Shown here piece by piece: positions 4,014 to 26,585 of a stretch of 51,671 bases of DNA (position 1 is the first letter of the stretch; each line of letters begins with the position of its first letter). The stretch lies in contig JAYWAC010000010.1 in the NCBI GenBank assembly GCA_043782755.1, positions 1 through 51,671 on the forward strand, in the 5' to 3' direction. The DNA comes from Pseudomonadota bacterium. GTDB lineage: Bacteria > Pseudomonadota > Gammaproteobacteria > Ga0077536. Below the pieces are notes generated by a model that saw only the letters and a list, made by a program, of their open reading frames with translations, searched no databases and was not told the origin of the DNA. The position numbers and the translations under genes are program-made.

Positions 4014-4084
4014 GACGGTATTCTAGCAGCCTGTCGGACTTAGGATGAATCTGCGGCGGCGGCGCGCGTGATTCGATGTATGGC

Positions 4085-4978
4085 TTAAGTGCCCTGCGCA
4101 AGATCCTTGCGCGAGATGACGAAAACGCCTTCGCCACCGTGTTCGAACTCCACCCAGGTCAAGGGTAGATGCGCATAGCGCATATCGACCGCTGCGGCGA
4201 TTTCACCGACCTCCACCACCAGCACGCCGTGTGAACTGAGATGGCGGACAGCGCGCGCCAGAATGTCATCGACGCAGGCAAAACCCTCCTCACCCGCGAC
4301 CAGGGCCATGGCCGGCTCTTGGCGATATTCGTGCGGCAATTGCTCCATGCGCGCGGCCGGCACATAGGGCGGATTACTGACGATGAGGTCGTAAACCCCG
4401 GCGTCGCTCGGAAACAGATCGGCCTCGACCAGACGCACCCGCGATTCGAGGCCATGGCGGGCGCGATTGATAGCGGCGACCGCAAGCGCATCGGGACTGA
4501 GATCCGTGGCATCGACTTGCGCGGTGGGGAAAGTCAGCGCGCAGGCCAGCGCGATGCAGCCGCTGCCGGTGCCGATGTCGAGGATGCGCGTGACCTGCCC
4601 TTCATGCAGCCATGGCGCGAACTGCGCGTCGATAAGTTCGGCGATTGGCGAGCGCGGCACCAGCACGCGCTCGTCGACATAGAACTCGTGCCCGGCAAAC
4701 CACATGCGATGGGTGAGATAGGCGGCTGGACAGCGACGCTTGAGGCGCGTCGCTATCAGTTGTTCAGCGGCGGCACGACCCGTCTCATCGAGTGGCTGGT
4801 CGAGCAGTTCGTCACCCGCGTCGGGCGGCAAGGCCAATGCATGCAGGACGAGGAAGGCGGCCTCGTCCACGGCGTTGTCCGTGCCGTGACCATAGAACAG
4901 TCCTGCCCGTCGAAAACGCCGTGCGGCGCTGTCAACCAGCGCGCGCGGCGTGGCGGGCAATACTCCTCGTCTAGCCAC
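4085..4978 (-). CDS. prmB: 50S ribosomal protein L3 N5-glutamine methyltransferase
   Basis: YGHGTDNA.DEA, FYVDERVLVPRSPIAELI, LDIGTGSGCIA and SNPPY motifs; conserved prmB-aroC order. Confidence 0.93.
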   Translation of the reverse strand: MARRGVLPATPRALVDSAARRFRRAGLFYGHGTDNAVDEAAFLVLHALALPPDAGDELLDQPLDETGRAAAEQLIATRLKRRCPAAYLTHRMWFAGHEFYVDERVLVPRSPIAELIDAQFAPWLHEGQVTRILDIGTGSGCIALACALTFPTAQVDATDLSPDALAVAAINRARHGLESRVRLVEADLFPSDAGVYDLIVSNPPYVPAARMEQLPHEYRQEPAMALVAGEEGFACVDDILARAVRHLSSHGVLVVEVGEIAAAVDMRYAHLPLTWVEFEHGGEGVFVISRKDLAQGT

Positions 4979-6839: not shown

Positions 6840-6876
6840 GGTGTCCTCTGTGAGTCGCGTGAATGAGGCGGGCAAG

Positions 6877-6903
6877 CTATGGGCGCGAGCGTTCGATTTC
6901 AAG
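6877..6903 (-). promoter_or_regulatory. Sigma32 (RpoH) heat-shock promoter of htpG
   Basis: Minus strand CTTGAA-N13-GCCCATAG matches the CTTGAA-N13/17-CCCCATNT consensus; htpG is a known RpoH target. Confidence 0.75.
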
Positions 6904-7027
6904 GCCTTTGCTCGTGTGAACGCGCGCCGCGCTACCATAGCGCCCCACGGTCGCGAGCCCGCGACTGGCATCTTCGAGGGACTGAAGTGTGCGCGCTGCG
7001 GCGCGTCCGCAGCCTATCATTCGCGCC

Positions 7028-10897: not shown

Positions 10898-13444
10898 ATG
10901 AATAAAGCGTTCTGGAAATCCGACTGGTTTGTCGGCGCCGCCCTGTCCTTCGTGTTCTTCATCGCTTGGTGGGGACGCGCGCCGCTGTTGGAAAGCATCG
11001 AGCGGGACGCCTACGACCTCGGCGTGCGCACCGCGTCGCGTGATCCAGGCGACAAGGTCGTGGTGGTCGCCATCGACGATAAGAGTATCCAGAACATCGG
11101 TCGCTGGCCTTGGTCGCGCAAGGTCCACGCCGCGATGATCGACAAGCTCGCACAAGCCGGCGCCAAGACCATCGGCTCCACCATCTTCTATTCCGAACCG
11201 GAAGTACCGCCGGGCCTCGACTGGATACGCGAATTCCGCTCTGAGACTGGAAAGCTCGCCCAGGCGGGTGTGGCGGTTGATGCCCTCAACAAGAAATTCA
11301 GTGAAGCCGAACTCGCGCTTGACACCGACAGCGTGCTCGGCAATTCCTTCAAGCACGCCGGTAACGTGGTGCTCGGCATGCAGTTCACACCGGGTGAACC
11401 AGTCGGCAAGCCCGACAAACCCCTGCCCGACTACATCCTGCGGAACGCCATCAAGGAAGACAAGGTCGTCGATCCGAGCGGCGAATTTCCGATGCCTGTG
11501 CAGACCGTGCTCGCCGACTCTCCGATTCCAGTGGTCGGTGAAGCCGCACGCGGCATCGGTCACCTGCTCAATCCGCCCGATGTCGATGGCGGTATCCGCT
11601 TCGAACCGCTGGTGGTCGAGTATTACGGCGCTTTCTATCCCGCCCAATCGCTGATGGTCGCGGCGGCTTATCACAACCTCAAGGCCGAGGACATCAAAGT
11701 CAATCTCGGCGACAGCGTTCAGCTCGGCAACCTCAAGATCAAGACCGATCTGAACCTCAACATGAACACGTTCTTCTACAGCAAACGTCAGGGACACCCT
11801 GCGCCGTTCGACATCTATTCGTTCTACGACGTCCAACAGGGCGCCGTGCCGATGGAAAACTTCAAGGATAAAATTGTCCTGATCGGCGCTACCGCTTTCG
11901 GTGTCGGCTCCTCGTTCCATATTCCGCTGGGGGGCGATCCTGCCAGCCCGGTGCTGATCATGGCCCACACGGTGGCCAGCATTCTTAACGAGGCGTTCTT
12001 CATCGCGCCGTCATGGGCGGGCATCACCGAGCTGGTCGTGCTGCTCGTGATTGCAGCCTATTTGATCAGCCTGTTACCCAAGCTCAGTGCCGGGCCAGCA
12101 GCGCTGTTAAGCCTGGGCTTGTTCGTGCTGGTCATTGCCACCGAAATCGGTCTGATGGCGTCGCAGGCCATCTGGTTGAAATTGACCGGCGCGGCGACCT
12201 TGCTCGTCATCGGCCATGTGTTGCTTACCACCAAGCGCTTCCTGGTCACCGAAGCCACCAAGCGCCGCCTCGACTATGATTCGGCCCAGAGCAACAAGCA
12301 GCTCGCGCTCAAATTCCAGAAGGAAGGCGAGCTCGACATGGCGCTGGAGTATTTCCGCCGCTGTCCGGTGGATGAGAGTCTGCTGGAAGCGGTCTACATC
12401 CTGGCCGGCGACTTCGAGCGCAAGCGGCAGTTCAACAAGGCCGGCGCGGCTTACGAATACATCGCCGCCAAGGACCCGAACTTCCGCGACATCAAGAATA
12501 AGGTCAACCGCGCCAAGCAGCTCAACGACACGGTCATCCTCGGCGGCTCGGCGGCGGCCGCTACGGCGGCCAGCACCATGCTGCTCGACGGCAGCATCTC
12601 CAAGCCCATGCTCGGCCGCTACGAAGTCGACAAGGAACTCGGCAAGGGTGCGATGGGCGTGGTCTATCTCGGCAAGGATCCGAAGATCAACCGCGTGGTG
12701 GCGATCAAGACCATGGCCTTATCTCAGGAATTCGACCCGGCCGAACTGAACGAGGTCAAGGAACGCTTCTTCCGCGAAGCGGAAACCGCCGGTCGCCTCG
12801 ATCAGCCGAATATCGTGCGCATCTACGACGTCGGCGAAGAACACGATCTTGCCTACATCGCCATGGAGTTCCTGGCCGGTCACGATCTGGCCCGCTACAC
12901 CAAGCCCGACACTCTGCTGCCGCTGCCGACCGTGATGGGCATCATCTTCAAGGCCGCCATGGCGCTCGACTACGCGCACAAACACAACGTCGTGCATCGC
13001 GATATCAAGCCGGCCAATATCATGTACGAGCCGGAATCCAAGCAGGTCAAACTGACCGACTTCGGTATCGCGCGCATCACCGACTCAAGCAGGACCAAGA
13101 CCGGCATGGTGCTCGGCACGCCATCCTATATGTCGCCCGAGCAGCTGTCGGGCAAGAAGGTCGACGGCCGTTCCGATCTGTTCTCCCTGGGTGTGATGTT
13201 CTACCAGATGATCACCGGCAAGCTGCCCTTCCAGGGGGACTCGATGGCGACCCTCATGTACAAGATTGCCAACGAGGCGCATACCGAGGTCACCACCCTG
13301 CGTCCGGATCTGGCCAAGCAGCGCCCCTGTGTGTCCGAGATCATCAATCGGGCGCTGGTAAAGGATCCCTCCAAGCGTTATCAGACCGGCGCCGAAATGG
13401 CGCGCGACATTCAGCGCTGTGCCAAGCAGACCCAGTCGGCCTGA
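10898..13444 (+). CDS. Membrane Hanks-type Ser/Thr kinase with periplasmic CHASE2 sensor
   Basis: N-terminal TM, CHASE2 motifs (VVAIDDKS..IGRWPWSR, DVDGGIR, DKIVLIGATA), three TMs, then LGKGAMGVVY, VAIK, HRDIKPAN, DFGIAR, GTPSYMSPEQ. Confidence 0.92.
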   Translation: MNKAFWKSDWFVGAALSFVFFIAWWGRAPLLESIERDAYDLGVRTASRDPGDKVVVVAIDDKSIQNIGRWPWSRKVHAAMIDKLAQAGAKTIGSTIFYSEPEVPPGLDWIREFRSETGKLAQAGVAVDALNKKFSEAELALDTDSVLGNSFKHAGNVVLGMQFTPGEPVGKPDKPLPDYILRNAIKEDKVVDPSGEFPMPVQTVLADSPIPVVGEAARGIGHLLNPPDVDGGIRFEPLVVEYYGAFYPAQSLMVAAAYHNLKAEDIKVNLGDSVQLGNLKIKTDLNLNMNTFFYSKRQGHPAPFDIYSFYDVQQGAVPMENFKDKIVLIGATAFGVGSSFHIPLGGDPASPVLIMAHTVASILNEAFFIAPSWAGITELVVLLVIAAYLISLLPKLSAGPAALLSLGLFVLVIATEIGLMASQAIWLKLTGAATLLVIGHVLLTTKRFLVTEATKRRLDYDSAQSNKQLALKFQKEGELDMALEYFRRCPVDESLLEAVYILAGDFERKRQFNKAGAAYEYIAAKDPNFRDIKNKVNRAKQLNDTVILGGSAAAATAASTMLLDGSISKPMLGRYEVDKELGKGAMGVVYLGKDPKINRVVAIKTMALSQEFDPAELNEVKERFFREAETAGRLDQPNIVRIYDVGEEHDLAYIAMEFLAGHDLARYTKPDTLLPLPTVMGIIFKAAMALDYAHKHNVVHRDIKPANIMYEPESKQVKLTDFGIARITDSSRTKTGMVLGTPSYMSPEQLSGKKVDGRSDLFSLGVMFYQMITGKLPFQGDSMATLMYKIANEAHTEVTTLRPDLAKQRPCVSEIINRALVKDPSKRYQTGAEMARDIQRCAKQTQSA

Positions 13445-13470: not shown

Positions 13471-14301
13471 GTGGCCAAGGGCATCATCGAAGTCGCGAAC
13501 ATTTCGGACACCGGTCTGAAGCGCCCGCACAACGAAGACAGCGCAGTCACGGATTCGGCTCTGGGTCTGGCCGTGGTGGCCGACGGCATGGGTGGCTACA
13601 AGGCCGGTGAAGTGGCCAGCGCCATTGCCGCCCAGCTGATCCTGAACGAGGTAAGGGCCGGCATCACCCATGGCGACACTAGCGGCAAGGCCAACGGCTC
13701 GACCTTAAGTCGTGCCTCCATGGTAATTCGCGACGCGGTCGCCAAGGCCAATGCCGAGGTGTTCCGCACCGCCCAGGAAATTCCGCAATGCCAAGGCATG
13801 GGAACCACGGTGGTGGTGGTGTTCTATCACGGCGACAAGGTCAGCATCGCGCATGTCGGCGATTCGCGGGTTTACCGCCTGCGCGGCAATGAATTCAAAC
13901 AGATTACCCGCGATCACTCCCTCATTCAGGAGTTGATCGACCGTGGCTTCTTCACCCCGGAAGAGGCGGCCGAGAACACGCCCAAGAATCTCGTCACGCG
14001 GGCACTGGGTATCGAGCAGTCCGTGGAGGTGGATGTCCAGGAACAGGACCTGCAGGCGGGCGAGATCTACCTGCTCTGTTCGGACGGCCTCAATGATATG
14101 GTAGATGATGAAGAAATTCACTTAACCCTAAGTAAATATAGTGCTAATCTTGTCCAAGCGGCCACTGAACTGGTCCGACTGGCGAACGAAAAAGGCGGCA
14201 AGGACAACGTTTCCGTTGTGCTGGTACGACCGCAGAACCCGTCGAATGGCACGGCGGGGATCATGGCTAAATTCAATAGCTTTCTGAAAAAGGGCAGCTG
14301 A
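13471..14301 (+). CDS. PP2C/Stp1-family Ser/Thr phosphatase
   Basis: R.HNEDS, VADGMGG, GMGTT, HVGDSRVY, LLCSDGL, GGKDNVS. Confidence 0.93.
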   Translation: MAKGIIEVANISDTGLKRPHNEDSAVTDSALGLAVVADGMGGYKAGEVASAIAAQLILNEVRAGITHGDTSGKANGSTLSRASMVIRDAVAKANAEVFRTAQEIPQCQGMGTTVVVVFYHGDKVSIAHVGDSRVYRLRGNEFKQITRDHSLIQELIDRGFFTPEEAAENTPKNLVTRALGIEQSVEVDVQEQDLQAGEIYLLCSDGLNDMVDDEEIHLTLSKYSANLVQAATELVRLANEKGGKDNVSVVLVRPQNPSNGTAGIMAKFNSFLKKGS

Positions 14302-14314
14302 ATAGGACAGAACA

Positions 14315-15064
14315 ATGGCGAAGTTGGTTCTGAGCATGAACGGGGCGGTGCAAGGGGAATTCCAGCTGGGGAAGGAACGGATATCCATCGGCCGCAAACC
14401 CGACAACGATATCCAGATCGATAACCTGGCCGTCAGCGGCAAGCACGCACTCATCATTACGATTCTTGACGACTCCTTTCTCGAAGATCTCGGCAGCACG
14501 AACGGGACCTACGTGAATGGCAAGCTGGTCAAGAAGCACGCGTTGCGCAATGGCGACGTGATTGGTCTCGGCAAGCATGAGCTCAAGTACATCAATGAGC
14601 ACGCCACCGCCGACGACGAAGAATTCGAAAAGACCATGATCATCCGGCCGGGCTCGGCCAGTGCTGCGGTCGAGGCCGCCAAGGCGGTCGAGAAGGCCGC
14701 CGCCAAGGCACCGCCGCCCACCCTGGATCACACCGCCGGCGGTTCGCCGCGGATGGCGCCGATCAGCCCGGCACCGGGTGGCGGCATGCCGCTTGCCAAG
14801 CTGCACGTGCTGAACGGCCCGATAGCGGGCAAGGAACTGGAACTGACCAAGGCGCTCATCACGCTCGGCAAGCCAGGCACCCAGGTGGCGGTGATTTCCC
14901 GTCGTCCCCAGGGCTACTTCCTGACTCATATCGAAGGCGACGGCAAGAACGACAACTTCCCGGTGGTGAACAACATCCCGATAGGTCCTCAGGCCTATGC
15001 CATCAAGAACGGCGACATCATCGAACTCGCCGGCATCAAGATGGAATTCAGCCTGGTCAAGTAA
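14315..15064 (+). CDS. FHA domain protein with a second, degenerate C-terminal FHA-like domain
   Basis: N-terminal IGR...VSGKHA...DLGSTNGTYVNG; Ala/Pro linker; C-terminal ITLGK...NGDIIEL. Confidence 0.88.
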   Translation: MAKLVLSMNGAVQGEFQLGKERISIGRKPDNDIQIDNLAVSGKHALIITILDDSFLEDLGSTNGTYVNGKLVKKHALRNGDVIGLGKHELKYINEHATADDEEFEKTMIIRPGSASAAVEAAKAVEKAAAKAPPPTLDHTAGGSPRMAPISPAPGGGMPLAKLHVLNGPIAGKELELTKALITLGKPGTQVAVISRRPQGYFLTHIEGDGKNDNFPVVNNIPIGPQAYAIKNGDIIELAGIKMEFSLVK

Positions 15065-15191
15065 ATCGCCTCGGCCCTCGCCGCATCATGGCGGCGGGGG
15101 CATTCAAGCTTACCCACTCGCCCCTGCTTGCTAACCTTCACCGCCGCCACATCGACGTGGCGACCAGCACTTGAAGCAGATTCAAACCACG

Positions 15192-17468
15192 CTATTTGCT
15201 CTCGTGTTCGAACACGCCATCCCAATCGGCGGACGGCGGCACCTTGCGGAAATGCGCAACGCGTTCGGCATAGACCTTGTACAAGGCCGGCGACTTCGAG
15301 CCCCGTTGCAGGTTAACGAAGTTGAGCTCGGCGGTATCCCACTGCTGGGCGCGATAGAGACGCACGGTATCGGCGAATAGTTTCAGTTCTTTCTTCCACA
15401 GCGGGTCCAGTTGCTCGGCCAGTCCCAGCGGCTCATAGATCGCCACCGGTTTGGCCTTACCCTTGACCCGCACCCGGTCGAGTTCGCGATAGGCGTATTC
15501 GGGCACCGCGTCCTTGGTGGTTTCACTGACGATCAGGCGCACGCCATACTTCTTGGTCAGCCCTTCCAGCCGTGAGCCAAGGTTCACGGCGTCGCCGATC
15601 ACGGTATAGGCCATGCGGAACGATGAGCCCATGTTGCCAACGTTCATGAGTCCCGTATTCAAGCCCACGCCGATGCTGATCTCGGGCCAACCCTTGGCGC
15701 GGAACTGCGCGTTGATCTCGTCAAGCTTGGCGATCATCTCGTGTGCCGCTTCAAGCGCATGGCGGGCGTGCTCGCTGTCTTTTAGCGGCGCGCCCCAGAA
15801 CGCCATGATGGCGTCGCCCATGTACTTGTCGATAGTGCCCCGCGAATGGTGGATGACCTCGGTCATGGGAGTCAGAAACTGGTTCATGAGGTCGGCCAGA
15901 TCCGACGGCGAAAGCCCTTCGGAAATCGTGGTGAAGCCACGCACGTCGGAAAACAGCACGGTCAAGTCGCGGCTTTCGGCCGCCAGCGAGTATTCGGTCG
16001 GTGCCTTAGCCATTTCATCGACCAGCTCGGGCGGCACATATTGGCCGAACAGGCCGGTAATCTGACGCTTGCCGCGAGTCTCGACGAAATAGCCGTAGGA
16101 CATGTGCAGCAAGAACATCGTCAGGGCCATCATGATGCCCGAAGCGAGCGGCAGCACAGTCTGTCCCATCGACCAGACCATATGGTTGAAACCGATGTAA
16201 AGCAGGATGCCGCCAAAGGTGTAGAGCGTGATATTCAACGGACTGAGCAGTAGCCCCGCCACGATCATGCCGATGCCGACCACCAGCAGCATGATCACTT
16301 CGGCGCCCACCGTGTAAGCGGGAAATTCCAGCATCTTGTTGTTGAGAATGCCCGCGATCAGATTGGCATGGACCTCGACACCGGGATAAGCCTTTTCCAT
16401 GGGTGTCGCACGGAGGTCGAGCAAGCCCGGGGCGCTGGTCCCAAGCAGCACGATACGGTCTTTGAACAGGTTCGGGTCGGCGGCACCTTGCAGAACAGAG
16501 GTAGCCGACACATAGTGAAAACTGCCCTTCCCGCCGCGGTAGGGCACCAGCGTTGTCACATTTTTGTCGACTGGCACGCGTGCATTGCCGACGTTCAGCC
16601 ATTCGAGTCCAGGATAGCCACGGGTGTCGAACAGCGGCTTCTCGAAATGGGTAAGCACGGCATCGACGCCCAACACCCGCCGCACCATTTCCAGTGACAA
16701 GGAGCCGTAATACTTGTCGGCATAGCGCACCAGCATCGGCACGCGACGCACCACCCCGTCGCGATCGAGTGTCGGCGTAAAATGGCCGGCGCTCAAGGCG
16801 CTGGCCTGCAAGGCCTTGAGGTTGGCACCGAAGCCCGTCGCCGTCAGGAACTGCACGGCCTTGCCTTGGAAATCGGATTTTTCGAACAGCGGTTCGGGCA
16901 ATTCGCCAATCTTGGCGATGTCGGCGCCGTCACCAAAATTGAAGTAGTAGCCGAGCACGACGTTGTACTTCTGAATGGTCTCGGCCAGGATGCCGTCGTA
17001 GTCGAGCTGCGGCCGAATCATGTCCAGCCGACTGACGAATTCCTGATTGCCCCGCAGATCGTTCTTGGCGAGTTTCTCCAGGATCTTCAGACCCGAGCTC
17101 TCATCGGGCTCGGCAAACACAATGTCGAACCCAACCAGCTTGACCTTGTACTGTTGAAAGAGCCGATCGAGCAGATGCGCGAGCTTGTCGCGCGACCAGG
17201 GCCAGCGACCTTCGGCGGTGAGGCTGGCTTCATCAATATCGACGATCACGACGCTCTCATCGATGGTGCGCGGCATGGTGAATTCGAGATGACGGTCGTA
17301 GGCTAGATTCTCCATCTGCTCGATGAATTCAAAGCGCCAGACTTCGCTCGCGTGGACCAGGAACAAGACCAGCACGGCGGCGCTCATCGCCACACGAGGC
17401 CAGTTGTCTTTGAATCTGCTGAGTATCGCCCCCAAACTCTGCACTCCCCAGGTAAGGGGTCGTCTCAA
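15192..17468 (-). CDS. CHASE2-domain class III adenylate/guanylate cyclase
   Basis: CHASE2 (IVDIDEASL..EGRWPWSR, DRDGVVRR, PGVEVHAN), TMs, and cyclase motifs LFSDVRGFTT, DKYMGDAIMAFW, YTVIGDAVNLGSRLEG. Start uncertain. Confidence 0.92.
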   Translation of the reverse strand: MRRPLTWGVQSLGAILSRFKDNWPRVAMSAAVLVLFLVHASEVWRFEFIEQMENLAYDRHLEFTMPRTIDESVVIVDIDEASLTAEGRWPWSRDKLAHLLDRLFQQYKVKLVGFDIVFAEPDESSGLKILEKLAKNDLRGNQEFVSRLDMIRPQLDYDGILAETIQKYNVVLGYYFNFGDGADIAKIGELPEPLFEKSDFQGKAVQFLTATGFGANLKALQASALSAGHFTPTLDRDGVVRRVPMLVRYADKYYGSLSLEMVRRVLGVDAVLTHFEKPLFDTRGYPGLEWLNVGNARVPVDKNVTTLVPYRGGKGSFHYVSATSVLQGAADPNLFKDRIVLLGTSAPGLLDLRATPMEKAYPGVEVHANLIAGILNNKMLEFPAYTVGAEVIMLLVVGIGMIVAGLLLSPLNITLYTFGGILLYIGFNHMVWSMGQTVLPLASGIMMALTMFLLHMSYGYFVETRGKRQITGLFGQYVPPELVDEMAKAPTEYSLAAESRDLTVLFSDVRGFTTISEGLSPSDLADLMNQFLTPMTEVIHHSRGTIDKYMGDAIMAFWGAPLKDSEHARHALEAAHEMIAKLDEINAQFRAKGWPEISIGVGLNTGLMNVGNMGSSFRMAYTVIGDAVNLGSRLEGLTKKYGVRLIVSETTKDAVPEYAYRELDRVRVKGKAKPVAIYEPLGLAEQLDPLWKKELKLFADTVRLYRAQQWDTAELNFVNLQRGSKSPALYKVYAERVAHFRKVPPSADWDGVFEHESK

Positions 17469-17548
17469 TGCGACCCGCAGCTATGAACGTGCCCCATGGC
17501 GGGGGCACAGGCTAGAACTCACCGAGAAGTCGCGCGACGCGCCCCTTC

Positions 17549-18130
17549 CTACCGTCCCCAATAAGCCTCGAGATCCGTGACGAAATTCGCCAGCTCGTCC
17601 TGCGCGGCCTGTCCCAGCGCATGCGCACAACTACTTATCGCCTCATCGGGCAAGGGCACGCTGCGCTGGTAAGCACGCACGAATTCAGGCAACTCGCTAG
17701 CGGCCGACAGCAACTCGAACTCGAGACTCACCTCGGCCGTCGCGGCCCCTTGCCGCTCGAACTTGCGAATGTGACCGCGCACCGTGTACTGCGCATCGGC
17801 GCTAGGCGCGGTCACGATGCGATGCGTGCCGCGCAAGCGCTCGGCCAGCGCCTCCTGCAACAGCAGGCGCGGGCTGTCGACCCAATAGTGGTAAGTGTAC
17901 TGTTCGAGCGCCGTACCATCATCATGTGCGTAGACCAGGGCACGCTCGCCATGCAGACCATCGGCGACGAACGGCGGCACGTAGACAATCGCCCCCTCGC
18001 CAATGCTCGGCGCGCCGTTGCCAGCGGTCTGTGGCAAACGATAGAAGGTGTCTTTTTTCGGCGCTGCGCCGCAGCCAGCGAGTGCCAGTAACAAGCCGAC
18101 GAGCAACCCACGGCGCAGACACGCTTTCAT
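17549..18130 (-). CDS. PqiC-like ABC transport auxiliary lipoprotein
   Basis: Lipobox LAGC, FYRL, Y.YHYWVDSP.LLLQEAL; last gene of an MCE operon, 4-bp overlap with the MCE gene. Confidence 0.8.
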   Translation of the reverse strand: MKACLRRGLLVGLLLALAGCGAAPKKDTFYRLPQTAGNGAPSIGEGAIVYVPPFVADGLHGERALVYAHDDGTALEQYTYHYWVDSPRLLLQEALAERLRGTHRIVTAPSADAQYTVRGHIRKFERQGAATAEVSLEFELLSAASELPEFVRAYQRSVPLPDEAISSCAHALGQAAQDELANFVTDLEAYWGR

Positions 18131-19137
18131 TTCTGCCCAGGCTCTGGACTTTCCGCGTTACGCAATAGCCGCGCCGGATTGCCACGGATGGTGCGCGCGA
18201 ATTCATTCATGTTGCGCGTTCCGCCTTCGAGATTGGCGAGGATCTGACCGAGATGCTCGTTGACCGTCTTCAAGGCGAGCTGCAATTCGCGCATCGAGAC
18301 CTGCGCCGCGCCAACTCCGGCGCTGACCTCGTCGCGGTTATCGATGACCAGGCTGTCGAGCGCGACCAGCAACTTGTCGGCCTCGGCGCGACTGGTCTCG
18401 ACGCGGCTGATCAACGCATTCAAGTTGACCGCGACGCCATCGACGTGGGTCAGAATATCCTTCACGTGCTCCTGATTGGCGGTGCTAAACATGGCCTGCA
18501 GGCCACGCGCACTTTCGTCCAGTTGCTTGATGATGGAGATGGTGCCGCCCAGCACTTCCTTGTCCAGCCGCTCGTGCAGCATGGTCACCAGTGGCGAGAG
18601 ATCGTCGTGGCGGAATTTCAGAATCTCATCGGTCACGGCGGTGATGCGCGTGTCGAGATTCTTCAGCACTGGCATGAGGCCGTCCTGGGACAAGGTACGG
18701 AAATCGCCGGCCGCCTGATTCAAGACCGAGAACAAATCGGTCTGGGCCTGACCGGCGAGAATATCGCCGGGCTGCAAGGAGGTCGCGGACTTGCCTTGGT
18801 GTATGTCGATGGTCACCGCCGAGATCAGGCCCGAGGCCGCCACTGCCGCAACACTGTCACTCGGAATCTTCCAGCCGGCTTGCACGCCGAGTTCGAGCTT
18901 GTAACGCATGCCACCGGCGTCCGGTTGGGGCGTGATAGCCTCGACCTGGCCGATGCGATAGCCCTCGAAGAATACACCGGTGCCGAAGTTGAGACCGGCA
19001 ACGTTGTTGTAGACCACGTAGTAGGTATCAGTCGGGCCATGTCGCCCGGTCACCGCGAACAGCAGCACCACCAAGGCCACCGCCATGGCAAGCACGAAGC
19101 TACCGACCATGAGGTAATTGATGTTGTCTCGCTTCAT
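18127..19137 (-). CDS. MCE/MlaD family protein with long helical C-terminus
   Basis: N-terminal TM (VGSFVL), NVAGL..GTGV.FEGYRIGQV and GLISAVTIDI MCE motifs; ends NPARLLR. Confidence 0.88.
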   Translation of the reverse strand: MKRDNINYLMVGSFVLAMAVALVVLLFAVTGRHGPTDTYYVVYNNVAGLNFGTGVFFEGYRIGQVEAITPQPDAGGMRYKLELGVQAGWKIPSDSVAAVAASGLISAVTIDIHQGKSATSLQPGDILAGQAQTDLFSVLNQAAGDFRTLSQDGLMPVLKNLDTRITAVTDEILKFRHDDLSPLVTMLHERLDKEVLGGTISIIKQLDESARGLQAMFSTANQEHVKDILTHVDGVAVNLNALISRVETSRAEADKLLVALDSLVIDNRDEVSAGVGAAQVSMRELQLALKTVNEHLGQILANLEGGTRNMNEFARTIRGNPARLLRNAESPEPGQK

Positions 19138-19165
19138 GCTGACCGGGTCCGACTCTTGGGCCGCG

Positions 19166-19951
19166 CTAACCGCCCGTCAAACGGCGCAGATAGGCATCGG
19201 CATCGATTTCTTCTTGTCTGGGTCGACGGTTCAAGAGATCCTGGACCCGCTCATTGGAGGAATTTCTGACCTCAAGAGCGGTGCCCGCCAATAGAATCTT
19301 GCCACGATCGAGCACCGTGATGCGATCGGCGATTTTGAAGGCGCTGTCGAGTTCATGGGTGACGACTACGATCGACATCTGCATGCTGTCGCGTAGCTTC
19401 AGGATCAGCTCATCCAGTTCCGCCGACACCACGGGATCGAGCCCGGCCGAAGGCTCGTCGAAGAACAGCAGCTTGGGGTCCATGACGATGGCGCGTGCCA
19501 GCGCGGCGCGCTTGATCATGCCGCCCGACAGCTGCGCCGGCATGAGATCGCCGAGGCCGCCCAGCCGCACTACCTCGAGCTTCATGCGCGCCATGATGGC
19601 CATGGTCTGCTCATCGAGCCGGGTGTGCTCGCGCAGCGGCAACATGACGTTCTCCAGCACCGACATCGAACCGAAAAGCGCGCCACTCTGGAAGGACACA
19701 CCCATGTTCTTGCGCAAGGCGTGCATCTGCATCGGTGTAGTCGTGGTGATGTCCTGACCAAGCAGTTTGATTGAACCACTGGTCGGCGCGTTCAGGCCAA
19801 GCAGATGACGCAGCAGCGTGCTCTTGCCCGAGCCGCTGCCGCCCATGATGACCATGATCTCACCCGCTGCGACCGTCAGGGAGACATGGTCGAGAATGAG
19901 TCGCGGCCCGTAGTGGGTGACCAGTGCGCGGACTTCAATCGCGGCGCTCAT
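19166..19951 (-). CDS. MlaF-like ABC transporter ATPase
   Basis: GGSGSGKST, FQSGALFGSMSV.ENV, LSGGMIKRAALARA, FFDEPSAGLDP, VVVTHE. Confidence 0.92.
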   Translation of the reverse strand: MSAAIEVRALVTHYGPRLILDHVSLTVAAGEIMVIMGGSGSGKSTLLRHLLGLNAPTSGSIKLLGQDITTTTPMQMHALRKNMGVSFQSGALFGSMSVLENVMLPLREHTRLDEQTMAIMARMKLEVVRLGGLGDLMPAQLSGGMIKRAALARAIVMDPKLLFFDEPSAGLDPVVSAELDELILKLRDSMQMSIVVVTHELDSAFKIADRITVLDRGKILLAGTALEVRNSSNERVQDLLNRRPRQEEIDADAYLRRLTGG

Positions 19952-20763
19952 GCGCGATTCAGGAAGTAGGTGAACATCATGTCGGTCAACACGATGTAGG
20001 AAATCGACAGCACCACCGCGCGGGTCGTAGCGCGACCGAGTCCCTCGGCGCCGCCCGCGACAGAAAAGCCATTGCTGACGCCGACCAGCGCCACCACCAG
20101 CGCGAACACACCGCTCTTGGCCAAACCCTGCATGATGTCATCAACGCCGATGAAGTGGCTGGTCTGATCCCAGAACGCACGATAGCTCAAACCCAATTCG
20201 AGCTTGCAGAACACCGCGCCGCCAAACAGCGCGGCGAAATCGGCGAACAAGGCCATGAGCGGCATCATCACTAACATGGCGACCATCACCGGTGCGACCA
20301 GATAGCGCACCGGATTGATGCCCATCACGCGCAATGCGTCGATCTCCTGATTGATATTCATAGTGCCAATGCGCGCGGCCAGCGAGGAACCGCTGCGGCC
20401 GGCAACCAGAATGCCGGTCATGAGCGGACCAAACTCGCGCGTCACCGACAAGGCGATGCCGAGCACCACCTGAGTCTGGGCGCCGAATTGTTTCAAGGTA
20501 TGGATGCCCTGGATGGCGAGCATCACGCCGATGGCAAAAGACAGCATGAAGATGATCGGCAGACCGGCGAGACCGATCTCGACCATCTGCTGCACGGCGG
20601 CCGAGAAACGCACCGGCTGCCGGCGTAGCGTGCCCCAGCCCAGCCAGTAGATACATTCGATACAGAGCGCGAGGTAGTAGCCGAACTCCTCGACCAGGCA
20701 GACGCAGATCTGGCCGAGACGTTCGAGCGCGTCGACGAATGGGCGCTGCCCGCCGTCAGCCAT
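19948..20763 (-). CDS. MlaE-family ABC permease
   Basis: REFGPLMTGILVAGRSGS..AA.IGTM...EIDALRVMGINP.RYLV.P and GLGRATTRAVV. Start ATG 20763 overlaps the STAS stop by 8 bp. Confidence 0.92.
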   Translation of the reverse strand: MADGGQRPFVDALERLGQICVCLVEEFGYYLALCIECIYWLGWGTLRRQPVRFSAAVQQMVEIGLAGLPIIFMLSFAIGVMLAIQGIHTLKQFGAQTQVVLGIALSVTREFGPLMTGILVAGRSGSSLAARIGTMNINQEIDALRVMGINPVRYLVAPVMVAMLVMMPLMALFADFAALFGGAVFCKLELGLSYRAFWDQTSHFIGVDDIMQGLAKSGVFALVVALVGVSNGFSVAGGAEGLGRATTRAVVLSISYIVLTDMMFTYFLNRA

Positions 20764-21088
20764 CCGCCATGAGACGCGCGGCAAGATCGGCGTGGATGGG
20801 AAACACCTTATCGAGGCGCGCCAGTTCCAGCACACTCATGGCCGCCTCGCTGACACCGATCAGACCGAAGCGCAGCGCTTTCTTGCGCGCAGTCTGAAAG
20901 CCTTCCACCAGACTCGCCACGCCCGAGCTGTCGATATAAGACACGCCACTCAAATCGACCAGGGTGTGCTGGCCCTTGGTGAGGCTGGCAAGAATGGTCT
21001 TGCGCGCGTCCGGAGAACAGGACAGATCGACATCGCCGCTCAGACGCACGATGGCGTAGCCGCTTTCCTGCTGAACTTGATAGGGCAT
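20756..21088 (-). CDS. STAS domain protein (RsbV/SpoIIAA anti-anti-sigma-like or MlaB-like)
   Basis: 110 aa; LSGDVD, VDLSGVSYIDSSGVASLV (phospho-acceptor Ser motif), VLELARLDKVF. Confidence 0.9.
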   Translation of the reverse strand: MPYQVQQESGYAIVRLSGDVDLSCSPDARKTILASLTKGQHTLVDLSGVSYIDSSGVASLVEGFQTARKKALRFGLIGVSEAAMSVLELARLDKVFPIHADLAARLMADG

Positions 21089-21135
21089 GCGTCAGGCGTC
21101 CTTGTAAGACTCGAACCAGGTCAGCAATGACATCA

Positions 21136-22830
21136 TCACCCCACTCCCCCATCCAGGCGCTTGCTCATGCGCAGGACATTGCCAGGTCGATCGGCGAGAT
21201 GCGCGTAGACGCAGCGGTCCATGATCTCGTTCATGAAATGAGTGCCCAGACCGCCGGGCCGCACATCCTCGAACGCGCGGCCCCGGATACTGTCGAGGTC
21301 GATGGGCGCGGCGAAGTCAGTCAATACGACTTCGATCTCGTTTTCATTATTATGGATCTCCAACACGATTTCACCCGAGCTATCACGCCGGTAGGCATGC
21401 TCGATGATGTTCATGCAGGCCTCGTTGATCGCGATCACGAGCGCCTTGATGAGCTTATCGGGCCAGCCGCGCGCGCGACCCGCCTGGTGCACCTGTTCGC
21501 GCATGCTCTTCAACTGCGCGGCGTCGGCTGTGAAGCGCAACGTCAATATCCTTGTCGTCAACGCCGCCGCGCGCGGCAACTCGATGAGCATGAGCGTGAT
21601 GTCGTCGTGAGAGCGGTAACCTGCCGCGCGCCAGGCACCGACCACCGCCTCCAAACGACGATCGGCGGGCACCGCACTGGCGGCGGCCAGCATCTGCGTG
21701 AGTCCACGCGCGCCGAGTTCGGCGCCCATCGGCGAAACACTCTCGCTGATACCGTCGGTGTAGAGATACAGCGCGCCGCCATCGAGATCTATCTCCTCGG
21801 CCGGGAAATCCATATCGGCCAATACACCGAGTGGTGGCGCGCCTGCGGCAAACTCGACAATGCTGCCATCCGGTCGACGCAGAAGGGCAGGATGATGCCC
21901 ACCATTGGCGAGTTCGAGTCGACCGCTGCTTGGATCGAGATAACCGGCAATGAGGGTCACAAACATGCCGAGCGTGCTGCGCTCGCAGATCTCATCGTTG
22001 ACCTGTCGCAGCAAGGCACTGGCACTGCTGGCGCTCTTGGCCAGGCAGCGCAACAGACTGGTGGTCTTGGCCATCAAGAGCGCGGCATTCATGCCCTTGC
22101 CCGCGACGTCGGCCAGCGCGAAGTAGATGCGCCCATCGGCGAGCGGCATGAAATCATAGAAATCACCGGACACTTCGCGTGCCGGAATATTCATGCCATG
22201 CACCGCGAAGTCACTCGCCTCGCCAGCGGGCAAAAGGCTTTCCTGAATCTGGCGCGCGAGTTCGAGCTCCTTGCGCACGCGCTCCTGTTCGACCAGGGCG
22301 GTGGCCATGCGCGCGTTATGAATGGCCAACGCGGCGGCCGCTGCAACGATGCTCGCGAGTTGCAGGTCATTGAGTTCAAACAGACCATCGCCGCCGCGCT
22401 TGTTGAGCAGTTCGAGTGCGCCCAGGCAACGACCGCGCACCGCGAGCGGCACGCACAGGATGGAACGGGTGGCGAAACCAGTGTCGGCATCGACCATCGC
22501 CGCGAAACTCGCATCGCACGACACATCGCGCACGATGCGCGGCGCGTTCCGCGCCACGGTCTGACCGACGATGCCCTGTCCCGCCGCAAGTCTGAGCCCG
22601 CGAATGTTGACCGGGCCCGCACATTCGCGACAGACCAAGGCTTGGTCGTCGTCTTCAAGCAGGAAAATCGACGCCGCTTCGGCATCGAGATGCACCATGA
22701 AGCGATCGATGGCGTTCTTGAGAGTCTCGCCGATGTCGAGCGAGCTGGCGAAATCCTGGGTCAGTTCGGCGAGAAAACTGGCGGCTAGCTCCGGCACCTC
22801 ATCCAGCATGGCCGGCACCGCCTCACTCAT
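21136..22830 (-). CDS. GAF + SpoIIE (RsbU-like) phosphatase + RsbW-like HATPase kinase fusion
   Basis: GAF (GQGIVG, D..TGF.TRSILCVPL, LELLNK); SpoIIE (SGDFYD, ADVAGKG, YTDG, DDIT); HATPase (NEACMNIIEHAY, GGLG). ATG 22830 overlaps the DUF1841 stop (ATGA). Confidence 0.9.
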   Translation of the reverse strand: MSEAVPAMLDEVPELAASFLAELTQDFASSLDIGETLKNAIDRFMVHLDAEAASIFLLEDDDQALVCRECAGPVNIRGLRLAAGQGIVGQTVARNAPRIVRDVSCDASFAAMVDADTGFATRSILCVPLAVRGRCLGALELLNKRGGDGLFELNDLQLASIVAAAAALAIHNARMATALVEQERVRKELELARQIQESLLPAGEASDFAVHGMNIPAREVSGDFYDFMPLADGRIYFALADVAGKGMNAALLMAKTTSLLRCLAKSASSASALLRQVNDEICERSTLGMFVTLIAGYLDPSSGRLELANGGHHPALLRRPDGSIVEFAAGAPPLGVLADMDFPAEEIDLDGGALYLYTDGISESVSPMGAELGARGLTQMLAAASAVPADRRLEAVVGAWRAAGYRSHDDITLMLIELPRAAALTTRILTLRFTADAAQLKSMREQVHQAGRARGWPDKLIKALVIAINEACMNIIEHAYRRDSSGEIVLEIHNNENEIEVVLTDFAAPIDLDSIRGRAFEDVRPGGLGTHFMNEIMDRCVYAHLADRPGNVLRMSKRLDGGVG

Positions 22831-23252
22831 CGCAACAGCGCGCGCAGACGCGCGAGATAGCCCTGTTCGTCGGGCATGACGCTGTGCTGATTGGCGCTCC
22901 ACAACACCGCAGCGAGATGTTCCATGATGCGATGCTCGAGACCATGCACATCCTGGCTTTCCTGTACCACCAGCTGTTTATAGAGCGCCATGATGCCGGG
23001 CGGCCTGTCGGTCTGTAGTTGCTCGATGAGAGCGACATGCAGGCCCATATGCAGGAAGGGATTGGTATCGCCTGCAGCAAAGTCGCGTTCTAGCGCACGC
23101 TCGCCCTGGCCAAGCACGCGGTGATATTCAGGATGGGCGCGGATGACTTCAGCAAGCAGGGTCTCGAGAGGTGTAAGCGCCTCGCTGCGGGCGATCTTCT
23201 CCCACACCGCGAAAAAGAATTGTCGAGACTGGTCGCGTGATTCGACGAACAT
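22827..23252 (-). CDS. DUF1841 family protein
   Basis: SRDQ.RQFF...W, HPEYH and NPFLHMGLH..L.EQ..DRP.GI, recognised from memory of the family. Confidence 0.75.
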   Translation of the reverse strand: MFVESRDQSRQFFFAVWEKIARSEALTPLETLLAEVIRAHPEYHRVLGQGERALERDFAAGDTNPFLHMGLHVALIEQLQTDRPPGIMALYKQLVVQESQDVHGLEHRIMEHLAAVLWSANQHSVMPDEQGYLARLRALLR

Positions 23253-23289
23253 AACGGCACTTTAGCAGCGCGACGAGTGCCGCGCGAAT

Positions 23290-23934
23290 TCAATCGCCGA
23301 GATAATGGCGCTTATCGCGCCACTCGCACAGATCGGCCACCACGCATTGCCCGCAACGGGGATTGCGCGCGGTGCAGACATAACGGCCATGCAGAATCAG
23401 CCAATGATGGGCGTGTAGCTGAAATTCGCGAGGCACGGCGCGCAGCAGTCCTTGCTCGACCGCGAGTGGCGTCTTGCCCGGCGCGAGCTTAGTGCGGTTG
23501 CCGACCCGAAAGATGTGAGTGTCGACGGCGATGGTCGGTTCGCCAAAGACGACGTTCAAGACCACATTGGCGGTCTTACGCCCGACGCCTGGCAGGGCTT
23601 CCAACGCGTCGCGCTCGCGCGGCACTTCGCCGCCATGATTGTCGAGCAGAATGCGACAGGTCTTGATGACATTCTCGGCCTTGGTATTGAACAGGCCGAT
23701 GTTGCGGATATGGTTCTTCACGCCCGCCACGCCGAGGGCCAGCACGGACTTCGCATCGGGCGCGACTTTGTACAGCGTGACGGTCGCCTTGTTGACGCTA
23801 ACGTCGGTCGCCTGCGCCGACAGGATCACGGCGATCAGCAATTGAAACGGTGTGTCGTACTTAAGTTCGGTGGTCGGTGCCGGGTCGCGCGCCGCCAGGC
23901 GCCGAAAGAATTCGGCTTTGTTAACCTTGTTCAC
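23290..23934 (-). CDS. nth: Endonuclease III
   Basis: [24 protein letters not shown], and 4Fe-4S C-X6-C-X2-C-X5-C. Confidence 0.97.
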
Positions 23935-24512
23935 GGCGCACCGTGTTTTCGTGCGACCGCCGCCAGCACCGCCGCCCGCAACCGCTCCGCTTCGGATTCC
24001 ACTTCAATCAGCAGCGGTGCGCGCCGCACGGTATGACGACCATCGAGCCGCGCAGTACGTCGTTCGTGGCGCGCGAGATTGTCGGCCGCGCTGGGCAGCG
24101 CCTGCGTAGTCTCGGGCAAGGCGATGCAATCAGTTGGACAGACCGGCACGCACAATCCGCAGCCGGTACACCAGGCAGTAAACACGCTGTGCATACGACC
24201 CGCCGCGCCAATGATGGCATCGACCGGACAGGCATCCAGACATTGTGTGCAGCCTATGCAATCGATCTCACGGATCTCGGCGACGCGCGCGGGCTCTTCA
24301 TCCAAGGGCGCCGAGGCGGCGTCTCGTTCCAGCAGCGCTGCCAGGCGCTGATGCGTCGTTTCACCACCGGGCGGACAGAGCGCAAGCGAGACACTCTCGT
24401 TGACCAAGGCCTCGGCATAGGGCCGGCAGCCCGCGTAACCGCAACGCCTACATTGGGTCTGAGGCAGCAGCGCGTCGACGGCGGCGATCAAGCCCAGCCT
24501 ATCCACCATCAC
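23931..24512 (-). CDS. rnfB: RnfB/RsxB-like iron-sulfur protein
   Basis: [43 protein letters not shown]; lacks the N-terminal TM of complex-associated RnfB. Confidence 0.8.
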
Positions 24513-24542
24513 CGCTGACTCAGGCCTGAGCGCACGAGACTT

Positions 24543-26585
24543 TTATTTCACCCGCTGGCCAGGCTCGGCACCGCTGTCGACATTCAACAGAAAGATGTCC
24601 GCACCACCGGGACCGGCCGCTAGCACCATGCCTTCCGAAATGCCGAAGCGCATCTTGCGCGGCGCGAGATTGACGACCATCACTACCTGGCGACCGATCA
24701 ATGCTTGCGGTGCATAGGCGGCCTTGATGCCGGCAAACACATTGCGCTGCTCGGTGCCGATGTCGAGGGTGAGTTGCACGAGTTTGTCGGCGCCCTCCAC
24801 GGCCTTGGCATCAACCACGCGCGCGATGCGCAGATCGACCTTGGCAAAATCATCGATGCTGATCAGGCCTTCGTCGACGGTCGCTTGCGCCGTGGCCGGC
24901 GCGGGTGTGGGCGCGGCGGCAGCTATCGGCTTGGCCGGCTGGCCGTCTTTACTCGCTTCTACCATGAGATTGATTTTCTCCCGGTCAACCCGCTGCATGA
25001 GGGGCTCGAATTTATTGATGCTGGCGCCTAGTGGCACCGTGTTCACATCCGACCAGCACAGTTCGCCGCCACCCAGAAAATCTTCGGCGCGACGCGCGGT
25101 GGCTGGCAGCACCGGTTTCAGATAAATGAGCAGGATGCGAAACAGGAAGATGCCCATGCTGCATACCGCCTGCAATTCGGTGTCACGCGTGGCGTCCTTC
25201 GCAATCACCCACGGCGCGCGCCGGTCGATGTACTGATTGGCGCGATCGGCGAGCGCCATGATGTCGCGCATCGCGCGGCTGTATTCACGCGCTTCATAGC
25301 AAGCCGCGAGCGGTTCGGCGGCGGCCTCAAGCTCGGCCAGCAAATCCGCATCGTCGAGTCTATCGGCGAGACGGCCATCGAAACGCTTGGTAATGAAGCC
25401 CGCGCAGCGACTCGCGATGTTGACGATTTTGCCGACCAGATCGGAATTGACCCTGAGCTCGAAGTCTTCAAGATTGAGATCGATGTCTTCGATGGCCGAA
25501 CCGAGTTTGGCCGCGAAGTAGTAGCGCAGATATTCTGGATTCAGATGATCGAGATAGGTGCGCGCGGTGATGAAGGTGCCGCGCGACTTCGACATCTTGA
25601 GCCCGTCGACGGTCAGAAAACCGTGCACGAAAACATTGCTCGGCAAACGGAAGCCGGCGCCATGCAGCATCGCCGGCCAGAACAATGTATGGAAATACAT
25701 GATGTCCTTGCCGATGAAGTGATAAAGCTCGGTCGTGCTCTCAGGGCCGACGAAGTGCTCGAAATCGAGACCGCTGCGTGCACACAGATGCTTGAAGCTC
25801 GCAAAGTAGCCGATAGGCGCATCCAGCCACACGTAGAAATACTTGCCCGGATGATCGGGGATCTCAAAGCCGAAGTAAGGCGCGTCGCGCGAGATGTCCC
25901 AGTCCTGCAAGCCGGTCTCGAACCATTCGTTTAGCTTGTTGACGATACCGCTCTGCAGGTCGTTATCCTTCAGCCACTGACGCAGCACCTGTTCAAAGGC
26001 GCCGAGGCGAAAGAACAAATGCTCGGACTCTTTGAGTTCCGGCGTCACACCGGACAAGGCCGAGACCGCGTCGATGAGATCGGTGGGCGCGTAAGTCGCG
26101 CCACATATTTCACAGGAGTCGCCGTACTGATCGGCGGACTTACAGCGCGGGCAGGTGCCGCGGATGAAACGGTCCGGCAGGAACATCTGCTTGATCGGGT
26201 CAAAGGCCTGACGAATGGCGCGTTTGGTGATGTAACCACCATCGCGCAGGCGCGTGTAGATGGTCTCGGCAATCGCGCGGTTTTCCGGCGAGTGGGTCGA
26301 ATAATAATTGTCAAAGTCCACGCCGAAATCGGCGAAGTCACGTTGATGAGCCGCGCCGATGCGCGCGATCAAATGTTCCGGCGTGACGCCCTCCTGCTCG
26401 GCGCGCAGCATGATGGGTGTGCCATGGGCGTCATCGGCGCACACGTAATGGCACTCGTTGCCGCGCAGCTTCTGAAAACGTACCCATATATCGGTCTGGA
26501 TGTATTCGACCAGATGGCCGATGTGTATCGGGCCGTTCGCATAGGGCAGGGCACTGGTGACCAGGATCTGGCGTGTGGCGGTCAT
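24543..26585 (-). CDS. metG: Methionyl-tRNA synthetase
   Basis: HIGH and KMSKS motifs, Zn knuckle, C-terminal tRNA-binding domain. Start ATG 26585 with GAGG RBS. Confidence 0.97.

Follow-up and report, generated by a model that had tools for sequence, protein, structure and literature searches.

The stretch analyzed here, called the window below, is the 51,671-nucleotide (nt) sequence at positions 1 to 51,671 of contig JAYWAC010000010.1, from the assembly of a Pseudomonadota bacterium (Gammaproteobacteria; Ga0077536; GCA_043782755.1). Seven co-oriented genes on the minus strand, between positions 17549 and 23252, join the parts of an envelope lipid ATP-binding cassette (ABC) transporter to those of a partner switch, a GAF-sensing phosphatase-kinase (the switch enzyme) and a free-standing STAS protein (Table 1). 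An earlier reading of the DNA made before any database search, referred to as the sequence-only reading, had named these seven genes and their domains, and Pfam assigns all of them. The four overlaps that it listed, including the one between the STAS and permease genes, can be read directly from the sequence: three are ATGA overlaps (22827-22830, 19948-19951, and 18127-18130), and the STAS gene shares 8 nt, ATGGCTGA, with mlaE at 20756-20763. The remaining junctions are gaps of 47 nt (enzyme/STAS) and 28 nt (MlaF/MCE). The points of the sequence-only interpretation that could be checked all held up against comparative genomics and a structure model. We consider it fairly probable that the operon encodes an Mpc/Mla-type envelope lipid ABC transporter with a phosphorylatable STAS subunit, equivalent to MlaB, and a switch enzyme dedicated to it.

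Table 1. Features of the operon and its neighbors, in window positions
Feature	Position	Strand	Length (amino acids)	Evidence and remarks
DUF1841 protein	22827-23252	-	141	PF08897, E 5e-46; own stop overlaps the enzyme start (ATGA)
Switch enzyme, GAF + SpoIIE/PP2C + HATPase_c_2	21136-22830	-	564	Pfam; length from the ATG at 22830; full open reading frame 21136-22902, 588 amino acids
GAF sensor domain of enzyme	~22318-22740	-		Pfam
PP2C/SpoIIE phosphatase domain of enzyme	~21577-22137	-		PF07228, E 1e-40; residues 256-442 of the 588-amino-acid frame
RsbW-like HATPase_c_2 serine kinase domain of enzyme	21160-21534	-		PF13581, E 8e-26; same placement by genome search
Free-standing STAS protein	20756-21088	-	110	PF01740, E 6e-16; predicted phospho-acceptor and MlaB equivalent; Ser54 codon at 20927-20929
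MlaE-type ABC permease	19948-20763	-	271	Pfam MlaE, E 4e-71; length from the ATG at 20763; full open reading frame 19948-20835
MlaF-type ABC ATPase	19166-19951	-	261	Pfam ABC_tran; MlaF* clade (see text)
Single-MCE protein	18127-19137	-	336	Pfam MlaD, residues 36-115
PqiC/YmbA-family lipoprotein	17549-18130	-	193	ABC_trans_aux, PF03886, E 2e-12; final gene of the transporter set
CHASE2-sensor adenylate/guanylate cyclase	15192-17468	-	758	CHASE2, E 2e-60; Guanylate_cyc, E 3e-20; 80 nt downstream of the operon
FHA-domain protein	14315-15064	+
PP2C protein	13471-14301	+

The nearest solved relatives of the window MlaF in profile comparisons are the MlaF proteins of Acinetobacter baumannii, Pseudomonas aeruginosa, and Escherichia coli (E 3e-69 to 1e-61). 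An AlphaFold2 model of the MCE protein (mean predicted local distance difference test [pLDDT] score, 73) consists of an N-terminal membrane helix at residues 3 to 30, strands at 36 to 130 (pLDDT >90), and helices at 135 to 319 (pLDDT 55 to 77), and the approximately 190 amino acids of long helices that follow the MCE barrel are predicted to form a needle-like extension. The signal peptide of the lipoprotein ends in a lipobox-like LAGC. Pfam finds neither MlaC nor MlaA in the operon. A scan of positions 15000 to 24600 returned 2 promoter-like sites (2.6 expected) and 11 that resemble terminators (6.8±3.0 expected); with counts at chance level and none of the sites at a suitable gene boundary, the scan does not delimit the ends of the operon.

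Linkage of the switch with STAS and MlaF genes

The linkage on which the sequence-only reading depended is conserved. A profile scan of species-representative genomes gave 575 confirmed relatives of the enzyme, and the best 80 of the 575 loci were used for linkage counts. A STAS gene lies directly 3' of the phosphatase/kinase in all 76 loci that have downstream sequence (the other 4 of the 80 stop at a contig edge), and 74 of these 76 STAS genes carry the DSSG motif, the exceptions being a truncated 72-amino-acid open reading frame (L012) and a gene at a contig end (L039). Viewed from the STAS gene, an RsbW-type gene or domain is directly upstream in 76/76 loci and in all further loci read from the class sample described below except L088. 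The next gene is an orthologous MlaE in 58 of the 74 loci long enough to hold it and a canonical-type MlaE (approximately 30% identical) in 2 (L060 and L065); 14 loci have no MlaE after STAS, and a further 2 have no room. All four transporter genes were found by tblastn in 39 of the 47 loci with room for them, and the other 8 miss only the PqiC match; a weak ABC_trans_aux open reading frame occupies the PqiC position in both of the 2 that were checked (L046 and L064). The loci are labeled Gammaproteobacteria, Rhodocyclaceae/Azonexaceae (for example, Azonexus hydrophilus and Propionivibrio), and Rhodospirillales. Dozens of gamma-, beta-, and alphaproteobacterial genomes share the arrangement, which is therefore far beyond what chance would give.

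Relatives retain the switch but differ in how it is built. The sequence-only reading had described a single bifunctional enzyme, which is true of the window, where GAF, PP2C, and kinase are fused; this is one of two common forms, and many relatives encode the kinase separately. Fused relatives of 557 to 578 amino acids are 65 to 87% identical to the window enzyme, and the family also includes GAF-PP2C forms of approximately 420 amino acids. The sensor of the phosphatase is a GAF domain, as in the window, or an HDOD domain (L100 to L102), and in L089, L091, and L092 a bare PP2C is sited after the lipoprotein gene, at the 3' end of the operon. In two loci of different families, L112 (9302-10270) and L117 (7818-8783), the gene just before that for the HDOD-PP2C encodes a radical-SAM/DUF3641 protein.

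A reverse survey covered 299 other genomes evenly sampled from the class of the window organism (G253 was unscored); many of the genomes compared are incomplete metagenome-assembled genomes. Ortholog thresholds were set by gaps in E value and identity: at least 50% identity for MlaE, with a clear gap to paralogs at ≤44%, and E ≤1e-75 (≥60% identity) to the window MlaF for the clade termed MlaF*. An MlaE ortholog was found in 41 of the 299 genomes, a STAS ortholog, always in one copy, in 54, and MlaF* in 54. Of the 41 MlaE orthologs, 38 have the STAS ortholog just upstream of them; the other three are in G137 (contig break), G122 (STAS on another contig), and G284 (no STAS). STAS and MlaF* occur together in 52 genomes, STAS only in 2 (G089 and G096), MlaF* only in 2 (G284 and G019, where the match sits at a contig start), and neither in 243, a table that overstates significance because related genomes are not independent. 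The two MlaE-MlaF-MCE-PqiC operons without STAS lie at L090 4018-5933 (G122) and L087 3764-5632 (G284), and one is preceded by an HD_5 (HD-GYP-like) protein and the other by LemA and DUF1841. Genome G122 has GAF-PP2C, RsbW, and STAS genes on another contig, ahead of a full Mla operon (L119).

In the loci examined, MlaF matches fall into 8 at 35 to 45% identity and 81 at 60 to 85%, with none between. A tree of 85 MlaF sequences, a quick IQ-TREE search only, clusters the 77 MlaF* rows (SH-like approximate likelihood ratio test [SH-aLRT] support, 93) and leaves canonical MlaF (99) and fusion-type MlaF (98) outside on long branches; three operon contexts are intermixed within the cluster. Fourteen genomes of the class sample hold STAS without an MlaE ortholog, and in 7 of these STAS is directly followed by MlaF*. 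The operons of L111 and L112 run HDOD-PP2C, RsbW, STAS, MlaF*, MlaE (approximately 30% identical), MlaD, MlaA, MlaC, with near variants in L113 to L115 and, with MlaF divergent, in L119, L060, and L065. MlaF* and STAS stay paired whether the permease is of the Mpc type, as in the window, or belongs to a full Mla set (MlaE-MlaD-MlaA-MlaC), and by these sequence comparisons the switch goes with MlaF* and not with the type of permease. In L110 (2829-6377; G039), HDOD-PP2C, RsbW, STAS, and MlaF* stand together with no permease or MCE gene after them, followed by msrA on the other strand and unrelated open reading frames; the target permease of this ATPase and switch may be encoded elsewhere.

The 14 transporter-less loci among the 80 are syntenic with the window (nth, DUF1841, enzyme, STAS, CHASE2 cyclase, FHA, PP2C), and exactly the four transporter genes are missing from them. 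Orthologous MlaE was absent from the five of these genomes that were searched for it (G001 to G005). MlaF* (60 to 63% identity) is present elsewhere in 12 of the 14 genomes, and the four operons read around it (L103 to L106) run MlaF-MlaE-MlaD...MlaC, none with an MlaB of its own; G002 additionally has a canonical operon with MlaB (L107). Loss of the transporter was considered as evidence against a transporter role for the switch, an objection that the MlaF* genes elsewhere largely resolve. In L012 (G306), the truncated STAS frame (11680-11898) lacks DSSG and the best MlaF of the genome (54%) has an in-frame TAG (G306:C125:12540-13244), which could reflect joint decay of both proposed partners or assembly errors.

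These loci also bear on the target of the STAS protein. The P. aeruginosa HsbR/HsbA pair is a sigma-less switch with a STAS output, in which HsbA acts on a diguanylate cyclase. The STAS protein of the window could likewise be the output of the switch and act on another neighbor, for example, the CHASE2 cyclase, the link to MlaF being incidental. The cyclase does lie 3' of the window operon, and it directly follows STAS in five transporter-less loci (L015, L018, L026, L028, and L038). Among the 80 loci surveyed, however, the alpha- and betaproteobacterial ones with both switch and transporter show no match to a CHASE2 cyclase after the operon, the HDOD-type loci read (L110 to L113 and L117) are without a cyclase, and 12 of the 14 transporter-less genomes have the matching ATPase elsewhere, which together make a cyclase target improbable.

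A canonical mlaF-mlaE-mlaD-mlaC operon on contig C35 supplies the genome of the window organism with a second MlaE and has a 91-amino-acid MlaB-like STAS as its last gene; the MlaF of this operon is 39% identical to that of the window. Within this region (L108 3087-8241), the MlaB-like STAS gene lies at 3087-3362 and reads DSSA in its phospho-site region. The operon is met convergently by a gene for a REC-PP2C-HATPase_c_2 protein (3851-5593), an architecture like that of HsbR and CrsR, and this second kinase/phosphatase may or may not act on the MlaB; the gene after it encodes a hybrid histidine kinase that carries an Hpt domain (5815-8241). No comparable kinase/phosphatase neighbor is seen at the other canonical operon read (L107). 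A STAS-only protein of 109 amino acids on contig C240 (L109 7162-7491) belongs to a chemotaxis cluster, between CheR and CheW/CheA, and is unrelated to the switch.

Sequence classes and predicted docking of the STAS protein

The STAS phospho-site reads YIDSSG, and D53, S54, S55, and G56 are invariant in 39/39 aligned orthologs, in agreement with the canonical DSSG site noted in the sequence-only reading. The kinase domain has B. subtilis RsbW (6m36; E 1e-9) as its nearest solved structure and retains the N box and the G2 box. No other strong RsbW-type HATPase_c_2 match came up in a whole-assembly search (94.7 bits for this domain, 29.4 bits for the runner-up).

STAS domains are tied to related permeases in another way as well. 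Second-tier MlaE paralogs (35 to 44% identity) occur in open frames of approximately 370 to 400 amino acids in the MlaE survey, whose tally counts three unpublished genomes (G301, G044, and G146), and all 21 frames that were read have an N-terminal extension of approximately 100 to 115 amino acids that aligns with STAS; Pfam STAS_2 was confirmed on the 2 checked. In L098, a separate STAS gene is upstream of a second-tier permease. No kinase was seen in the few fusion-type loci examined. The statement of the sequence-only reading that related MCE permeases carry a fused STAS thus has its examples in these 21 frames and, according to a report on Brucella (PMC12436622), in MpcE. The residue at the phospho-site was considered as a means of telling kinase-linked from fused STAS domains and failed, 19/21 fused domains sharing the Thr or Ser.

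A model of MlaF with STAS, built from alignments of 39 orthologs each, scored 0.80, 0.80, and 0.81 in three runs, compared with 0.01 for the best of three controls; the mark applied to such scores is reached by 116/157 solved complexes and 2/215 mismatched pairs. The runs share at least 97% of their contacts, and the pLDDT of the partner is at least 91. In the predicted interface, STAS residues 21 to 22, 25 to 26, 29, 51, 53 to 55, 57 to 59, 61 to 62, and 85 to 92 meet MlaF residues 110 to 127, 156 to 158, and 185 to 191. This structure prediction, a check suggested by the sequence-only reading, places the Ser54 face in contact with MlaF and Ser54 itself at the center, and as a prediction it supports binding of STAS to the ATPase. 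In the E. coli study (Kolich 2020; PMC7367683), MlaB Thr52 is likewise central in the contact with MlaF, the T52E substitution weakens binding, and MlaF does not remain on MlaE without MlaB; phosphoregulation of the conserved Thr/Ser of MlaB is raised there as a question and left at that.

The sequence classes of the two switch proteins also fit a classical partner switch, in which the RsbW-like domain would hold a distant sigma factor and STAS would be its antagonist, the transporter being merely cotranscribed or a member of the regulon. Sigma factor binding by a fused PP2C-HATPase enzyme has precedents, among them Shewanella CrsR. The STAS and HATPase domains are typical of RsbV and RsbW, and the switch occurs without an adjoining transporter in some genomes. 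A Sigma70_r2 search of the whole assembly, which covers the sigma-70 family only, gave 13 matches, all on other contigs and none on the window contig (C10), consistent with the earlier observation of no sigma factor gene in the window. No sigma gene turned up beside the switch in the tblastn surveys and partial Pfam scans of relatives, in which no search aimed at sigma genes was made. A distant sigma factor would leave unexplained the tie between STAS and the MlaF clade (52/2/2/243), the position of STAS directly before MlaF* or MlaE in three operon designs, the STAS-MlaE fusions of sister permeases, and the place of Ser54 in the predicted MlaF contact, and we regard this explanation as unlikely, if the least unlikely of the alternatives.

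It is also conceivable that STAS is a constitutive, MlaB-like structural subunit and that the kinase/phosphatase has another substrate or is a dead enzyme serving as a scaffold or chaperone for STAS. The kinase offers some ground for this, since the G1 box is D-F-A-A-P-I, compared with D-E-G-D-S-F in B. subtilis RsbW; the Gly-to-Ala change is family-wide, and the catalytic competence of the kinase is uncertain because this glycine is replaced. Fused STAS domains with no kinase nearby retain the Ser or Thr too. The complete invariance of D53-S54-S55-G56, the RsbW-type gene or domain that directly precedes STAS throughout the linkage survey, the retention of PP2C even in operons that have shifted it to their 3' end, and the intact N and G2 boxes speak against it, and a constitutive role is the most improbable of the explanations considered, by a small margin below a cyclase target.

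A lipid transporter with a switchable, MlaB-like STAS remains the reading that we favor, and several observations weigh against it in addition to the altered G1 box, the nonindependence of the co-occurrence counts, and the quick nature of the MlaF tree. By sequence, the STAS protein is of the anti-sigma-antagonist type, its profile being nearest to TM1442 (E 2e-21), RsbV (E 5e-13), and SpoIIAA, and its likeness to MlaB is marginal (E 1e-4, 25 bits). The proposal of the sequence-only reading that it is an MlaB-like subunit accordingly draws on linkage, on co-occurrence with MlaF*, and on the complex model, whereas the sequence itself is only faintly MlaB-like. The high score of the complex may reflect likeness to the MlaF-MlaB complexes that have already been solved. 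A Ser or Thr stands at the position equivalent to Ser54 in 19/21 fused STAS domains without a kinase nearby, so that this residue alone is not diagnostic. Two genomes, G089 and G096, hold STAS without an MlaF* at the cutoff, and two others have the orthologous transporter without an adjacent STAS (G284/L087 and G122/L090). Among the transporter-less loci, L079 (G005) is a true exception, with the switch present and a best MlaF of only 41% identity.

Sensor input and neighboring genes

The GAF domain resembles the cyclic-nucleotide-binding members of its family. Its profile matches are PDE5 (E 9e-32), CyaB2 (E 9e-29), and PDE2A (E 4e-25), with DevS-type GAF domains at approximately 1e-8, and of the NKFDE motif of cyclic-nucleotide-binding GAF domains, the N, K, F, and D are invariant or nearly so. 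From these sequence features, the ligand is probably a cyclic nucleotide. A CHASE2 cyclase neighbors the switch in the gammaproteobacterial loci, transporter-less ones included, and could supply the nucleotide to which the GAF domain responds; the association is lineage specific, and this link is therefore only an inference.

Beside the CHASE2 cyclase, the window has genes for a PP2C and an FHA-domain protein. In relatives (L031, L043, and L068), a CHASE2-Ser/Thr protein kinase accompanies this pair, and together they form a conserved Hanks-type signaling cluster beside the switch.

At the other end of the operon, the DUF1841 gene had been counted as a member by the sequence-only reading. It is co-oriented with the enzyme gene and overlaps it, and it is probably cotranscribed here yet not core to the system. 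The family occurs in 162 of the 299 class genomes, is adjacent to the module in only 7, and is otherwise usually distant, and it was rejected as a member on these grounds; in G284/L087 it directly precedes an orthologous mlaE with no switch present.

Proposed mechanism and relation to known systems

The scheme proposed here is built on the observed gene content, linkage, co-occurrence with the MlaF clade, and sequence classes of the domains, together with the predicted interface. The unphosphorylated STAS protein would dock on the helical subdomain of MlaF through its Ser54 face and, as for E. coli MlaB, would let MlaF assemble stably and work on the permease. Phosphorylation of Ser54 by the RsbW-like kinase domain would break this contact and turn the pump off. 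The GAF-PP2C part would remove the phosphate upon binding its ligand, probably a cyclic nucleotide and maybe one made by the neighboring CHASE2 cyclase. Kinase and MlaF probably share one face of STAS, and STAS would therefore switch partners between the kinase and the ATPase, so that the output of the switch would be transport and not transcription. We infer the phosphorylation and its sign (off when phosphorylated), as well as the ligand, the substrate, and the direction of transport.

The transporter genes have counterparts in two studied systems. According to the E. coli MlaFEDB work (PDB 6XGY and 6XBD; PMC7367683), that complex likewise consists of an MlaE permease, an MlaF ATPase, and an MCE protein, and its MlaB is a small STAS protein that sits on the MlaF helical subdomain through a conserved Ser/Thr face (Thr52, to which Ser54 corresponds here in the model only) and is required for stable MlaF assembly. 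E. coli MlaB differs in that the same source gives it no known kinase or phosphatase and treats phosphorylation as a hypothesis, whereas the operon of the window includes an RsbW-type kinase and a sensor PP2C. In the window, moreover, the STAS protein is of RsbV-type sequence and its gene precedes mlaE rather than ending the operon, the MCE protein is long, and a PqiC-like lipoprotein takes the place of MlaC and MlaA. The "chimeric Mla-Pqi" system MpcEFDA of Brucella abortus (EMBO J 2025; PMC12436622) is closer in design. It has MlaE-like and MlaF-like proteins, a single-MCE protein with a long helical extension (331 amino acids, compared with 336 in the window), a PqiC-like last gene, and no MlaC, and an MlaB-homologous STAS domain belongs to the permease. 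There, however, STAS is fused to the N terminus of MpcE, and the text consulted mentions no kinase or phosphatase, with "phosphoryl" absent from the article, whereas in the window STAS is a separate gene accompanied by a switch enzyme. The likeness noted here is one of design; the fusion-type permeases of the window's own class are 35 to 44% identical to the window MlaE.

The switch genes, in turn, resemble RsbU/RsbW/RsbV and SpoIIE/SpoIIAB/SpoIIAA of Bacillus (6m36 and 1th8) in combining a PP2C/SpoIIE phosphatase, an HATPase_c_2 kinase, and a STAS protein with DS(S/T)G. They differ in that no sigma factor accompanies the module, phosphatase and kinase are fused to each other and to a GAF domain, and the conserved genomic partner is an ABC ATPase. 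Besides HsbR/HsbA, sigma-less switches with STAS as the output include SypE/SypA of Vibrio fischeri (PMC10120452) and HenR of Anabaena, whose STAS partner controls a glycosyltransferase (PMC13555669). A multidomain kinase/phosphatase in each of these systems toggles a STAS-only protein with a non-sigma target, as is proposed here, and the targets are polysaccharide or biofilm functions, a glycosyltransferase, FlgM, and a cyclase, none of them a subunit of an ABC transporter. The sensors of these systems are REC domains, in contrast to the GAF or HDOD domains of the present family. In a review of STAS-only proteins (PMC8256260), the terms Mla, ABC transporter, MCE, and lipid never occur in the text. 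The sequence-only reading knew of no characterized example of such a transporter switch, and full-text searches, whose coverage leaves out most subscription journals, turned up no paper that connects Mla/MCE transport with a partner switch or with a kinase.

A broader form of the proposal, to which we give even chances, is that a portable four-part cassette consisting of a sensor PP2C, an RsbW kinase, a DSSG-STAS protein, and a matched MlaF gates ABC lipid transporters posttranslationally. One serine phosphate would decide whether the ATPase is docked, the cassette would have been adopted by two or more different machines for envelope lipids (Mpc-type and full Mla-type), and in the lineage of the window organism a cyclic nucleotide from the CHASE2 envelope sensor would be the input. 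If this is true, the genes would form a closed loop leading from envelope state to lipid flux without transcription.

The fast adjustment of lipid traffic between the two membranes of bacteria is a question on which this operon family may bear. The family brings together a kinase, a phosphatase with a ligand-sensing domain, a predicted phospho-acceptor, and a matching ATPase; no kinase was known for MlaB in the E. coli work (PMC7367683). Many proteobacteria carry the module in their genomes, and named, cultured genera are among them, as in the Azonexus hydrophilus ZS02 record (L046). Because all of the parts occur together and cultured carriers exist, the hypothesis is directly testable by ordinary biochemistry. 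If it is true, this would be the first partner switch with a transporter as its output and a natural answer to the question of MlaB phosphoregulation, and it would widen the outputs of partner switches from transcription to membrane transport.

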